64,000 nucleotides of DNA from Escherichia coli (lineage in GTDB: Bacteria; Pseudomonadota; Gammaproteobacteria; Enterobacterales; Enterobacteriaceae). Location: assembly GCF_003334405.1 (NCBI RefSeq), contig NZ_QOWM01000002.1; one strand, 5' to 3'. Positions within the stretch are counted from its first letter, which is position 1. Each line of letters starts with the position of its first letter. Under the pieces are notes generated by a model, which was given only the letters and a program-made list of their open reading frames with translations, did no database searches and was not told where the DNA came from. Both the position numbers and the translations under genes were made by a program. Shown here one piece after another: positions 48,197 to 62,540 of the stretch.

Positions 48197-49008
48197 TGCT
48201 ACGCGAGTGTGATTACAGCCAGGCGCTGCTGGAGCAGGTGAATCAGGCGATTAGCGATAAAACGCCGCTGGTGATTCAGGGCAGCAATAGCAAAGCCTTT
48301 TTAGGTCGCCCTGTCACCGGGCAAACGCTGGATGTTCGTTGTCATCGCGGCATTGTTAATTACGACCCGACCGAGCTGGTGATAACCGCGCGTGTCGGAA
48401 CGCCGCTGGTGACAATTGAAGCGGCGCTGGAAAGCGCGGGGCAAATGCTCCCCTGTGAGCCGCCGCATTATGGTGAAGAAGCCACCTGGGGCGGGATGGT
48501 CGCCTGCGGGCTGGCGGGGCCGCGTCGCCCGTGGAGCGGTTCGGTCCGCGATTTTGTCCTCGGCACGCGCATCATTACCGGCGCTGGAAAACATCTGCGT
48601 TTTGGTGGCGAAGTGATGAAAAACGTTGCCGGATACGATCTCTCACGGTTAATGGTCGGAAGCTACGGTTGTCTTGGCGTGCTCACTGAAATCTCAATGA
48701 AAGTGTTACCGCGACCGCGCGCCTCCCTGAGCCTGCGTCGGGAAATCAGCCTGCAAGAAGCCATGAGTGAAATCGCCGAGTGGCAACTCCAGCCATTACC
48801 CATTAGTGGCTTATGTTACTTCGACAATGCGTTGTGGATCCGCCTTGAGGGCGGCGAAGGATCGGTAAAAGCAGCGCGTGAACTGCTGGGTGGCGAAGAG
48901 GTTGCCGGTCAGTTCTGGCAGCAATTGCGTGAACAACAACTGCCGTTCTTCTCGTTACCAGGTACCTTATGGCGCATTTCATTACCCAGTGATGCGCCGA
49001 TGATGGAT
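48196..49008 (+). pseudogene. glcE: glcE, 3'-truncated (first ~271 codons only) at an island deletion junction
   Basis: Reads as GlcE through ...LPGTLWRISLPSDAPMMD, then continues into unrelated sequence that is antisense to an antigen 43 fragment. Intact GlcE is 350 aa. Confidence 0.8.
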
Positions 49009-50352
49009 TCCCTGGGCCACAATGTCAGCCCACAGGCCGGAGGCGTTGTGTATCAGATTCAGGTATCCGCCCAGGCTGCCGGCATCATCCCGGACCGTGC
49101 CGGCACGGGAGCCGTCATCATCCTTAACATCAACGGAAGAATGGCCAGCAGCACCATATACCCCCGCGGTCACAGACATACCGGCAACCTCTGTTCTGAG
49201 CAGGTCACCCTCCAGACGGACGAAGCCATAGCTGCCGCTGCTTTCCGGCGTGGCTCCACGGGCAATACCGCCGTTGTTATCGTGACCGAGATGACCGCCC
49301 TGAATGCTGAGACGGACGCTGTTATTTTCACCGCTTACACCGGTCTGATGGCTGCGGGAGCCTGCCAGAATCCGGTCATAGTCCATTGCCTGTGTCAGCA
49401 TGGAGGCATACAGGGGGACTTCTGCACGATAAGCATTTTCACTGCGCAGATACCAGCTCTCATCACTGTCCCGGTTGAGGGAGTAGTTAAAGGCACCGGC
49501 CTGCAGCTTATTCCCCTGGACAAAGGCCCCTTCCTCCGTGGTGGCACCGTTAATGGCTTCCACCACCTGAATACCCTTACCGCTGGTCGCCAGCCCCGAC
49601 GCACTGTTGCCGGCGTTCACCAGGTTCAGGATGGTTTTTCCGGTTGCCCTGCCACCGTCAATGACCAGTCTGTCAGCATTGTTCTGTGCCATATCCGGGC
49701 GTACACGCAGGCTGATGGTGCCATTCTGTCCGTTCAGGTTTTTCACTTTCAGGGTTGCCGGTACGAACTTCCCTGTGCGGGTGGAGGTGAAATGAATCTG
49801 TCCGGCATGGCTGAGGTCATCCACCACCGACTGCACCGTGGCGTTATCGGGAATATTCCAGGTGGCACCAGAGGCGAGAGTGACATTCGTGGGGTCAATG
49901 GCACCGTTCAGCACAGTGCTGCCGGTCAGCTTCAGGGCTGTACCGCGCTGAGCAATGACATCCGTGGTGACGGTACTGTCGTTCAGCGTCAGCGTGCCTT
50001 CATTCAGGTTGACGGCTTTCTGGGTGAGTGTGGTGTTGCTGACAGTGAGTGTGCCACTTCCTGATTTTTCCACGCTGCCGTTACCGGTGAGAGAGCCTCC
50101 CTGCAGGAGTGCATCGCCTTCACGGATGGTCAGGGTATCGTTGTTCACCGTCTTCCCGGAAAGGGTAAGTATGGCGCCGTTATTCAGCGTGGTGGTGCCC
50201 GCCAGTGTGCCGCCCCTGGCGGTGAACAGTCCGCCATTTACCGTGGTATCCGTGGCCGTATCACCGGCGTTCAGCGTGAATGAACTGCCTTTTTCCAGCA
50301 TCAGGGCATCCGCCTGACCGCCTCCGATACTGAATGCCTTTCCGTCGCTCCG
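49006..50352 (-). pseudogene. flu: Internal fragment of an antigen 43 (Flu)-type autotransporter adhesin
   Basis: Translation matches the Ag43 passenger/autochaperone region (about residues 415-860). No signal peptide, no N-terminal passenger and no C-terminal beta-barrel. A frameshift is visible near 50300-50330 (KAFSIGGGQA in a different frame). Confidence 0.85.
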
Positions 50353-50827
50353 GGTAACCCTTTCCGGTCAGCAGATAACGCGACTGACAGAATTACCCCC
50401 GGCATATAACCTGCAGCGCAGTGCGCAGTTGCTGCAGCAACTGATGGTACTTTTCCCCGACAATCCCCGTGTTCAGGAAATGGTGGATAACTGGCAGAAG
50501 AGCGTAAGGAGTCGTGCGCTCCCGGAAGAGGCGATGACGGGCTGGAATGAAGGCATGACCCGCTTACAGCAGCTGGCTGAACGCCTGAACCGTCTGGATG
50601 AACAGCGGGGAAAATACATGACGGTCAGTGAACTGAAAACGGAGGTGTTTGGCATCATGCAGGCTTTTAACTGGCATATCCCGGCGGAAGAGCAGTTACG
50701 TCGCTATGATGAAGCCCGTAACCAGAATGGCAGTGAACAGCAGCAAAAACAGGCTGAAATGGCACTGAATCAGCTGATTAATCGTTATCAGGTGGAACAC
50801 GCTGGCAAACCGGAGAGGCAGCCATGA
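50353..50827 (+). other. Unidentified CDS fragment, open from the Ag43 junction with no credible start
   Basis: Open frame ...TLSGQQITRLTELPPAYNLQRSAQLLQQLMVLFPDN... ends at 50827. It begins inside the junction, so it is most likely the 3' remnant of a deleted island gene. Confidence 0.4.
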
Positions 50828-51065
50828 TGGCTGATAAAACATGGTAATGGAAAATAAACCCAAAAGAATGCGCACACCATGGGCAATCGAAGATATTCGC
50901 TACCTTGAAACGCATTATGGCGTGAAAAAAAACGCGAAATAGCGGCATATTGCCATGGGAGGGGATATGTCTGTCAGGCTGACTTGTTTTTCTCTTAAAT
51001 AGCCTTTATTTAAATTAGCCTTGGTATGAAATTAGAATCTATTAATTTTTATCAAAGGAGATTGT

Positions 51066-61080: not shown

Positions 61081-62343
61081 CTATTTTAATGGATTGTTGA
61101 TCTTTGCATAATCAAACGGACTGATACATTTCTCTCTGTTCGCATTCAGAAAATCTGCCCACCACTGTAGCATCAGCCGGCGTTCTTCCAGATGTTCGGC
61201 TTTATGGATGTAAGCAGCGCGTACACCGTTACGTTCCTGATGGCTCATCTGACGTTCAACAGCATCGCGGGACCACAAACCTGATTCGATCAGCGCACTA
61301 CATGCCATCGCACGGAATCCATGGCCACAGACATCCTGGGTTGTGTCATACCCCATCACCCTCAGGGCTTTATTTACAGTATTTTCACTGATTGGTTTAC
61401 GCGGGTCATGTGCTCCCGTAAAGATCAGACCATTTTCACCAGCCCATGTCTGTAGTTCTGCCAGTATGGCTACAGCCTGTTTGCTGAGTGGCACAAGATG
61501 TGGTGTTCGCATCTTGGAGCCCCGGTGTGAGAATTTTACGCCAGGCAGAGGTTCGCGTTCGGCTGGAATAGTCCACATGGCATTGTCAATATCAATTTCA
61601 GACCAGCGGGCGTATCTGAGTTCACTGGAACGAATAAAAACCAGTAAATTCAGCATAACTGCCAGTCGGGTGACAGGCTGGCCTTTATAACCGTCAATAC
61701 GCGACAGAAGTTCAGGCAGGCGTGAAAGATCCAGTGCAGGGCGATGCTGGCGTTTTACCGTGGTCAATGCACCAGCCATATCCAGAGCCGGGTTATATCT
61801 GATGATGCCAGACTGTACGGCATAACGCATTACAGCAGATATTCTTTGCTGCAGACGACTGGCGATTTCATAAATTTGTTTAGCTTCTGCAGCACGAACA
61901 GGGATAAGCAGGTCCGGGGTACTGAGTGTTGTGATATCCCGGTTGCCGATAAAGGGGAAAACGTGTGTCTCGAGGCTTTTGAGTACTTTATCGCTGTGTG
62001 ATTGTGCCCATTGTTTATTACTGGCATGCCAGCGTCGTGCAATATGTTCAAAAGAGAGTTGTAAATCAGGGACTACTTTTTTAGCTCTTTTCTGTTCGCA
62101 AGGGTCAATCCCCTCCGAAATCAGTTTTCGGGCCTCATCCCGTTTTGTACGAGCTTCGGAGAGAGAAACTTCTGGATACACACCAAGTGCCAGAGTCTTC
62201 TCCTTACCCAGAATACGATAACGGAGACGCCAGTAACGGGAACCATTAGGATGAACCAGTAGGAACATGCCAGCCCCGTCAGTGAGTTTATAAGCCTTGT
62301 CAGTGGGCTTTGCAGCCCGGATTTTTGCGTCAGTCAGTGCCAT
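61081..62343 (-). CDS. int: P4-type tyrosine integrase, adjacent to pheV
   Basis: Start at MALTDAKIRAAKP gives 420 aa. Phage-integrase catalytic region with HxxR and a C-terminal Tyr. Sits about 200 bp from the tRNA 3' end. Confidence 0.9.
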   Translation of the reverse strand: MALTDAKIRAAKPTDKAYKLTDGAGMFLLVHPNGSRYWRLRYRILGKEKTLALGVYPEVSLSEARTKRDEARKLISEGIDPCEQKRAKKVVPDLQLSFEHIARRWHASNKQWAQSHSDKVLKSLETHVFPFIGNRDITTLSTPDLLIPVRAAEAKQIYEIASRLQQRISAVMRYAVQSGIIRYNPALDMAGALTTVKRQHRPALDLSRLPELLSRIDGYKGQPVTRLAVMLNLLVFIRSSELRYARWSEIDIDNAMWTIPAEREPLPGVKFSHRGSKMRTPHLVPLSKQAVAILAELQTWAGENGLIFTGAHDPRKPISENTVNKALRVMGYDTTQDVCGHGFRAMACSALIESGLWSRDAVERQMSHQERNGVRAAYIHKAEHLEERRLMLQWWADFLNANREKCISPFDYAKINNPLK

Positions 62344-62495
62344 AGTATAGCCTTCTGAATGCGTTAAAGAGGGTACAAATTCTGTCGAACTGGGGTATAC
62401 CCGCAATTATACCCACACAATGGGGTTGATGTGGGGGGAATCTGGTTGAGTTCGGTAGAATTGATTTGTAGGTAGAACGCTTAAATTGTGGCGTT

Positions 62496-62530
62496 CTGAA
62501 ACGAAAAACGGACCTCCGTGGAGGTCCGTT
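62496..62530 (-). terminator. Rho-independent terminator of pheV
   Basis: Stem aacggacctccgtggaggtccgtt followed on the minus strand by a T-run (tttttcgttt). Confidence 0.7.
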
Positions 62531-62540
62531 GATATGAATT

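Follow-up and report, generated by a model that had tools for sequence, protein, structure and literature searches.

How a genomic island inserted beside a tRNA gene can come to end inside a gene of the glycolate operon is the question raised by a 64,000-nucleotide stretch of Escherichia coli DNA (RefSeq assembly GCF_003334405.1, contig NZ_QOWM01000002.1), the whole of which is called the window hereafter. In this stretch the tRNA gene pheV and a truncated glcE enclose an island of 13,531 bp (49010–62540) that stands in place of the glcE'-yghD interval of K-12. The comparisons described here make it very probable that this is a genomic island of the pheV type (GI-pheV) trimmed by microhomology deletions, which would have taken its distal arm, its distal repeat and about 23.3 kb of chromosome and left behind a non-excisable stump carrying defence genes. 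A deletion across the boundary between island and chromosome is the only simple reading of the locus, and it is supported by the alignments with K-12 and with strains that bear pheV islands.

The tRNA-Phe(GAA) gene is the sole tRNA gene within the 64 kb (ARAGORN, Rfam), and an Rfam scan of 46–64 kb returned nothing besides it. P4-type integrases insert at the pheV 3' end, and here an integrase gene adjoins the tRNA gene, with the insertion at its 3' end; this end is the proximal attachment (att) site of the island. Alignment of the K-12 MG1655 nupG-pitB region to the window gave three blocks, namely speC-yqgA-pheV (window 62533–64000), yghO'-glcC-glcD with the first 814 nt of glcE (44573–49009, 99.98% identity) and pitB-yghQ (31523–36183). 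Homology of the flanks ends at 49009 and resumes at 62533 with K-12, that is 8 bases beyond the pheV 3' end, or at 60687 with strain WP5-S17-ESBL-10. The elements on which the argument depends are the following, from pheV leftwards.

62541–62616, minus strand: pheV, tRNA-Phe (GAA) (ARAGORN; Rfam tRNA, 68 bits; K-12 alignment)
61081–62343, minus strand: intP4, intact P4-type tyrosine integrase of 420 amino acids (full-length Pfam domains)
50352–50827, plus strand: 3' part of an open reading frame (ORF) with a VasL domain, a remnant of a type VI secretion system (T6SS) (PGAP on identical DNA of BS74R-D and CE0011b; PF12486 VasL on record)
50352–50356: junction 2, Ag43/VasL fragment, 5-bp microhomology GGGTA, free of insertion sequences (IS)
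49010–50351, minus strand: internal fragment (1.34 kb) of an Ag43 autotransporter gene, about nt 1191–2542 of a 3120-nt agn43
49008–49009: junction 1, glcE/Ag43, 2-bp microhomology TT (GGnTT), IS-free
48196–49009, plus strand: truncated glcE, 814 of 1053 nt kept (end of the K-12 alignment)

A preliminary description of this stretch had placed a degenerate island at 49006–62540; its end is exact and its start lies within 3 bases of the point where K-12 homology ceases. The fall in base composition that it reported between 51.0 and 59.4 kb was recovered as a GC content of 0.424, against 0.517 in the rest of the window (measured over 1–44000) and 0.542 in yghO-glcE, with 0.459 for the island remnant as a whole. 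Every component that it listed was found (P4-type integrase, four IS fragments, two defence-like modules, AT-rich gene and Ag43 fragment), but the VasL fragment and the Ag43/VasL junction had been missed. The two modules can be named more precisely, as a complete QatABCD system and a type I cyclic-oligonucleotide-based anti-phage signalling system (CBASS), both by full-length PADLOC matches. The word degenerate overstates the decay, for the integrase and both defence systems are uninterrupted. This foreign composition and a modular cargo common to other GI-pheV and pheU islands, together with the integrase adjoining the tRNA gene, place the element among the GI-pheV.

Both joins were resolved by three-way alignments, junction 1 between the window, K-12 glcE and ZYB39 agn43, and junction 2 between the window, ZYB39 agn43 and BS74R-D. 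At junction 1, glcE has lost its last 239 nt and is joined to Ag43 at codon 271. The Ag43 fragment that follows retains neither the signal-peptide end nor the beta-barrel end, so that the signal peptide, passenger and beta-barrel of a functional Ag43 are not found in one ORF; it matches positions 504–758 of the 948 of the NCBIfam auto_Ag43 profile, with a score of 620 against a cut-off of 1200, and is 99.9% identical to the agn43 of many E. coli, copies in pheV islands included. At junction 2 the VasL ORF is cut in turn, its counterparts in related strains having 49 nt more and an ImpA fragment upstream. The locus thus bears the scars of two deletions rather than of a single one, both of the illegitimate type with short homology. 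The earlier proposal of an internal deletion that also removed chromosomal genes is accordingly kept as regards the deletion into glcE, but a second junction has to be added to it, and the deletion into glcE crosses the end of the island instead of lying within it.

The reading frame of the glcE remnant continues through the antisense strand of Ag43 to give a chimeric ORF of 622 amino acids (48196–50064). Gene callers accept this ORF (with a match to FAD_binding_4), and it clusters with spurious antisense-Ag43 "hypothetical proteins" in public databases. A 622-residue "GlcE" is a spurious chimera and an annotation trap.

Neither junction is present in 5,426 complete E. coli genomes, both 33-nt junction sequences are without a match in GTDB species representatives or JGI metagenome contigs, and no isolate with just one of the two was found in these three collections. 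The junction-spanning ORF was nevertheless seen on seven contigs, which belong to an NCBI draft and to Logan assemblies of separate runs and whose DNA is 100% identical to that of the window. Among them, contig JANJGO010000001.1 of GCA_024592615.1 (382,932 bp) is 100% identical to window 38196–60064 and the Logan assembly ERR4578754 to 38196–52077. The deletion is lineage-specific and marks a sampled lineage.

The extent of the chromosomal loss depends on the genome used as yardstick. The K-12 order glcE-F-G-B-A-yghJ-pppA-yghGFED-pheV, as given in the preliminary description, was confirmed, and 15,257 bp of K-12 (4453–19709 of the compared stretch) have no match anywhere in the 64-kb window. 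This unmatched DNA comprises yghD, yghE, yghF, yghG, pppA, yghJ, glcA, glcB, glcG, glcF and the last 239 nt of glcE. Thus the interval is missing from the window, as had been stated, but K-12 understates what was lost because it has itself deleted gspD-K (PMC3707838). Strains with an identical flank carry a complete type II secretion system beta (T2SS-beta), and the loss is therefore about 23.3 kb rather than 15.3 kb. The closest intact layout is that of WP5-S17-ESBL-10, which matches the left flank with 100% identity over 17 kb and reads glcC-D-E-F-G-B-A-sslE-pppA-gspS2-gspC...gspM(yghD), distal repeat, GI-pheV, the same integrase and pheV; measured on this strain, the chromosomal loss amounts to 23,269 bp (2916–26184 of its stretch). 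The left flank itself (32000–49009) is 100% identical in many E. coli genomes.

In place of a complete glcDEFGBA operon the window holds an intact glcD and a glcE cut at nt 814 of 1053, with glcF, glcG, glcB and glcA unmatched. Loss of growth on glycolate is predicted from this gene content, with GlcE truncated and GlcF, malate synthase G (GlcB) and the GlcA permease absent. SslE would be lost together with its secretion apparatus, and hence no SslE secretion is predicted. Such losses are frequent. Among the 5,426 complete genomes, 870 (16%) have no match to glcFGBA, which is at least 80% covered in 4,364, and coverage of the sslE-T2SS-beta interval reaches 80% in only 3,141, leaving 42% of the genomes without an essentially complete interval.

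The distal end of the island is missing as well. In intact islands a 22-bp repeat, TGGTGCCGGACTCGGAATCGAA, which is an imperfect copy of the pheV 3' end, marks the distal boundary; the published attR, TTCGATTCCGAGTCCGG-CACCA (PMC11537424), is its reverse complement. No copy of TGGTGCCGGACTCGGAATCGAA exists in the 64-kb window, searched exactly and with up to 3 mismatches, and the 15-nt core of the repeat matches pheV alone; a second copy of the pheV 3' end, for which the preliminary description had proposed a search, does not exist within the 64 kb. The Ag43 fragment abuts glcE directly, with no repeat between them. The distal direct repeat of 19–23 bp that belongs to a GI-pheV is thus absent, and this marks the element as a decayed member of the group, not as a non-member, because 14 of the 41 published GI-pheV also have no repeat (PMC11537424). 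With only one att site the intact integrase has no recombination partner. From this we infer that the remnant can no longer excise by site-specific recombination and would be inherited as fixed chromosome.

The layout from which the remnant may derive can be read from related islands. The block 50352–62540 (12.2 kb) is found at a coverage of at least 80% in 50 of the 5,426 complete genomes, at pheV or pheU. In STEC388 (NZ_CP041425.1) the proximal module has 98.98% identity over 1,757 nt aligned, and 99.6% over the whole match. Beyond the shared block this strain continues leftwards with an ImpA remnant and other T6SS debris, a CP4-like segment, a GTPase gene and Ag43 (minus strand). After Ag43 come DUF932, antirestriction, RadC, YeeT, YeeU, CbtA, DUF5983, DUF957 and DUF4942 genes, the distal repeat and yghD. 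STEC388 and ETEC1703 (NZ_CP122923.1) share with the window the integrase, the four IS fragments, CBASS, Qat, the AT-rich gene and the VasL remnant (99.6–99.7% identity), and in both strains Ag43 lies on the same strand as the fragment in the window, with the yee/CbtA module next to it (the ETEC1703 stretch ends within the yee module). STEC388 differs in that the distal arm, the repeat and a complete T2SS-beta are kept, and the Ag43 allele of both strains is only about 85–91% identical to the fragment.

A closer allele, with 99.9% identity, is found in ZYB39 and MIN12, whose pheV islands carry it at this place and in this orientation. Transcription of agn43 in intact islands is directed from the pheV side to that of the yee module, distal repeat and yghD. 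The fragment points the same way and thus has exactly the place and direction of the flu module of a GI-pheV, whereas all that such islands carry distal to it, and all that they carry between it and the VasL remnant, is missing. Identity of the allele was tried as a marker of origin and discarded as uninformative, the 99.9% allele being present at about 2.0 Mb as well as in pheV islands.

The ancestor would have been a modular GI-pheV of roughly 35–50 kb, lying between pheV and yghD (gspM) in an E. coli resembling phylogroup A. Its proximal part would have read pheV, intP4, IS debris, CBASS, Qat, the AT-rich gene and T6SS remnants, and its distal part a GTPase gene, Ag43, the yee/CbtA module, the 22-bp pheV repeat and yghD. 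The island would have accumulated IS debris and exchanged modules, as comparison with the relatives shows, before two RecA-independent, microhomology-type deletions. In the internal one the join, at GGGTA, would have been made between the 5' region of Ag43 and the VasL fragment. The second would have begun in the Ag43 3' region and taken what was left of the flu/yee arm together with the distal repeat and, beyond it, about 23.3 kb of chromosome (gspM-C, gspS, pppA, sslE/yghJ, glcA, glcB, glcG, glcF and the last 239 nt of glcE), with the join to glcE at TT. The presumed outcome is a non-excisable defence block of 13.5 kb, inherited as fixed chromosome.

Several points weigh against this history. 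Its exact ancestor is found in no single genome, the Ag43 of STEC388 and ETEC1703 being the more distant allele, and the 99.9% allele is also present at about 2.0 Mb in other strains; it is therefore orientation and position only that speak for an origin of the fragment in situ. Two events cannot be told from one complex event, a microhomology of 2 bp is no more than expected by chance, and the absence of the glc and gsp genes was established for the 64-kb window.

The first of these uncertainties is exploited by the alternative that survives best, in which a single deletion from the VasL remnant to glcE was made and the break was patched with a 1.3-kb copy of Ag43, as filler DNA or by template switching. 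The fragment is indeed short, with a microhomology junction at each end, and donors would be at hand, a largely agn43 query having a median of 2 matching places per E. coli genome and the 99.9% allele lying at other loci. On the other hand, simple loss in situ predicts precisely the orientation and relative position that the fragment has, and two independent deletions require no special mechanism. We consider such a repair improbable. Since 64 kb of the genome were analysed, the interval from glcF to yghD could also have been moved elsewhere, together with the distal arm of the island, by inversion or translocation. This would require extra junctions and leaves an internal-only piece of Ag43 unexplained; in addition, 49 kb of chromosome to the left of junction 1 are collinear, and outright loss is common (870 of 5,426 genomes for glcFGBA, 42% for sslE-T2SS-beta), and relocation is thus highly improbable. 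A chimeric contig joined at the repeated Ag43 sequence, which the multicopy nature of Ag43 and the absence of both junctions from complete RefSeq E. coli genomes might suggest, is hardly credible and was rejected, as the joins lie between non-homologous sequences that have only 2 and 5 bases in common, joins of a kind not bridged by graph assemblers, and the junction ORF recurs with 100% identical DNA on the seven contigs of NCBI draft and Logan assemblies.

Trimming of a GI-pheV by deletion agrees with what is on record for this part of the chromosome. T2SS-beta adjoins pheV, a hypervariable locus, and several independent losses of it have been noted (DeCanio et al. 2013, PMC3707838), with separate losses beside pheV in K-12 and Crooks (PMC3707838). 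The gspD-K deletion of K-12 and the replacement in Crooks represent the same repeated, lineage-specific loss of T2SS in the same neighbourhood; the window differs from them in that glcFGBA and part of glcE are gone too and in that this loss is continuous with that of the distal end of the island. In a survey of GI-pheV, intP4 was the only conserved gene, and flu and yee modules were described (Nhu et al. 2024, PMC11537424). The 14 islands without a distal repeat were smaller (23.5 against 75 kb), and the authors' reading was that deletions had taken the repeat and stabilised the island (PMC11537424). Such repeat-less islands (ATCC 8739, O157 Sakai SpLE3, O26 11368) resemble the remnant in having intP4 beside pheV, modular cargo, IS debris, flu/yee modules or their remnants, and a small size (mean 23.5 kb). 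They differ in the end point, which here lies inside glcE, about 23 kb into the core chromosome, and in the losses of modules, which are IS-flanked in the published islands and IS-free microhomology joins in the window. The cargo also differs, being anti-phage and not composed of virulence genes; Qat and CBASS are unmentioned in PMC11537424.

A second deletion of the same neighbourhood was found in 40 complete genomes (BS74R-D, NCTC9100, ML35 and 37 others), which are likewise without the glc operon, sslE and most of T2SS-beta. Its end points are different, inside pitB and just upstream of yghD (BS74R-D 2641–2691 of the compared stretch), and it keeps yghD, the distal repeat and a 27-kb GI-pheV that this deletion left untouched. 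It removes yghT...glc operon...sslE...gspL and is independent of the deletion in the window. Eight of the ten strains with the best-matching pheV island (99.7–100% identity), BS74R-D included, carry it.

Island decay of this kind has therefore been described at pheV before, and the window adds one more independent loss, with two particular features, the end point inside glcE and a surviving cargo that is anti-phage rather than virulence-related. It offers a base-resolved example of how a tRNA-borne island may become fixed, with the distal att site and flanking core genes deleted and the anti-phage cargo intact. Beyond the description of the strain it matters little; the lineage is predicted to be unable to grow on glycolate and to lack SslE and T2SS-beta.

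The cargo that remains between the VasL fragment and the integrase consists of the following features.

59486–60912, mixed strands: four IS fragments (PGAP pseudogenes in 100%-identical DNA of BS74R-D; partial NCBIfam matches)
60732–60912, minus strand: frameshifted transposase piece, unnamed (PGAP/NCBIfam)
60308–60700, minus strand: IS4 transposase, C-terminal piece (PGAP/NCBIfam)
59984–60298, plus strand: IS66 TnpA, N-terminal piece (PGAP/NCBIfam)
59486–59929, minus strand: IS66 transposase, C-terminal piece (PGAP/NCBIfam)
57440–59351, minus strand: type I CBASS, two genes (PADLOC; Pfam)
58023–59351, minus strand: CBASS CD-NTase cyclase (PADLOC Cyclase, 587 bits; Pfam SMODS and AGS_C on record)
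57440–58015, minus strand: CBASS 2TM/SLATT effector (PADLOC Effector 2TM, 274 bits; Pfam SLATT_6 on record)
52328–56887, plus strand: complete QatABCD system (full-length PADLOC matches; PGAP names in identical DNA)
56162–56887, plus strand: qatD, TatD nuclease (PADLOC QatD, 322 bits; Pfam TatD_DNase on record)
54846–56165, plus strand: qatC, QueC-like (PADLOC QatC, 461 bits; Pfam QueC on record)
54112–54864, plus strand: qatB (PADLOC QatB, 429 bits; Pfam QatB on record)
52328–54112, plus strand: qatA, KAP P-loop NTPase (PADLOC QatA, 1133 bits; Pfam KAP_NTPase on record)
51066–52196, plus strand: AT-rich orphan gene, 376 amino acids, GC 0.33 (no family match)
52048–52108, plus strand: in-frame perfect 9-bp variable number tandem repeat (VNTR) TTGCTGAGG, coding (AEV)n, inside the orphan gene

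The integrase matches Arm-DNA-bind_3 (PF13356, 1–83 of 83), Phage_int_M (PF22022, 1–96 of 96) and Phage_integrase (PF00589, 8–170 of 172), and its translation contains the HGFR and AAYIH motifs; it is, judged by these matches, a full-length member of its family. It is identical to WP_001218783.1 (PGAP, BS74R-D), an accession annotated also in CE0011b and WP5-S17-ESBL-10. The four qat genes are co-directional, in the expected order, with overlapping or adjacent ORFs. The CBASS comprises a cyclase and a single effector, as in type I, and its neighbours are qatD and an IS66 fragment, with no adjacent Cap2/Cap3-type or HORMA/TRIP13 genes. The integrase and the six defence ORFs are uninterrupted, and BS74R-D has identical copies of six of these seven proteins, with QatC one residue off. 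Two anti-phage systems, complete in sequence, are thus retained, and the stump is a putative defence island. In gene content, order and full-length profiles both systems agree with Qat and type I CBASS as catalogued by PADLOC and PGAP, and nothing distinctive was found here.

Window position 60687 is the start of homology to the otherwise different island of WP5-S17-ESBL-10, which shares the last transposase fragment, the integrase and pheV only, and a module boundary therefore lies beside the integrase. In CE0011b the block sits at pheU (30208–30283 of the compared stretch), flanked by dicD-dsbD-cutA and with an identical integrase, and the 12-kb defence module is found at pheU in several strains from cattle and pigs. 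Between the two tRNA-Phe genes, which are identical, it moves or recombines.

The orphan gene, with its hypervariable in-frame (AEV)n repeat, belongs to a family that is annotated nowhere. No match was found in Pfam, NCBIfam or PHROGs, and a search of PDB sequences gave nothing meaningful. PADLOC reports a weak match to PD-Lambda-4_B (E = 3.7e-6 over 80 residues), a name for which the text of the source preprint holds no PD-lambda-4 description. A structure model gives a weak hint of an oligonucleotide/oligosaccharide-binding (OB) fold. Homologues are spread across Enterobacterales, with 50–82% identity in Klebsiella, Citrobacter, Serratia, Xenorhabdus, Providencia, Pectobacterium, Yersinia and Enterobacter, and identity falls to 30% in Aliivibrio; the gene is cargo of regions rich in integrases and IS. 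In Yersinia frederiksenii the homologue follows a T6SS cluster ending in an ImpA/VasL gene, mirroring the E. coli order. The possibility that the gene is a fifth component of Qat was rejected, as the homologues of Xenorhabdus, Providencia, Enterobacter and Yersinia lie away from Qat.

The number of (AEV) copies varies among near-identical islands, from 6.8 in the window to 8 in CE0011b, 16 in ETEC1703 and 38 in BS74R-D. Homologues carry (AEV)n or (PE)n at this position, followed by a conserved C-terminal tail that ends in FFKK in full-length homologues of the E. coli and Xenorhabdus type. The protein has a Cys/His-rich domain at its N-terminus, a possible beta domain of OB-like type, the hypervariable repeat linker and a conserved C-terminal helix, and a role of the repeat in contingency or in the tuning of length is conceivable. 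Many database entries of this gene are labelled "partial" and located at contig ends. One Logan contig ends within the repeat, which suggests that short-read assemblies break at the VNTR.

After the deletion the orphan gene and qatABCD are co-directional with, and downstream of, the GlcC-regulated glcD promoter. A consensus scan of the plus strand between 48811 and 53542, which gives no evidence of function, detected no terminator-like hairpin. With the glcD promoter upstream and no recognisable terminator in between, glycolate could induce the orphan gene and qatABCD. Taken together, that the orphan gene is an undescribed island-borne gene for nucleic-acid sensing or defence, and that it and qatABCD are now glycolate-inducible through this promoter, is a tentative and rather improbable proposal.

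A hairpin of this kind lies at the other end of the island.

62507–62530, minus strand: terminator-like hairpin, island-borne, directly downstream of pheV (consensus scan)

This hairpin has a GC-rich stem and a T-run, and substitutes for the pheV terminator of K-12, where a different hairpin occupies the same place. As the hairpin is supplied by the island, formation of the tRNA 3' end and termination depend on island sequence.

Outside the island, the segment 36183–44573 of the window (8.4 kb) has no counterpart in K-12, which carries there IS5 and a truncated yghO. It codes for LptF/LptG-like proteins, a serine palmitoyltransferase-like aminotransferase, an acyl carrier protein, an epimerase and a fatty acyl-AMP ligase, and its GC content falls to 0.35 at 44.0–44.5 kb. 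Copies of this segment with 100% identity are found in many E. coli genomes.

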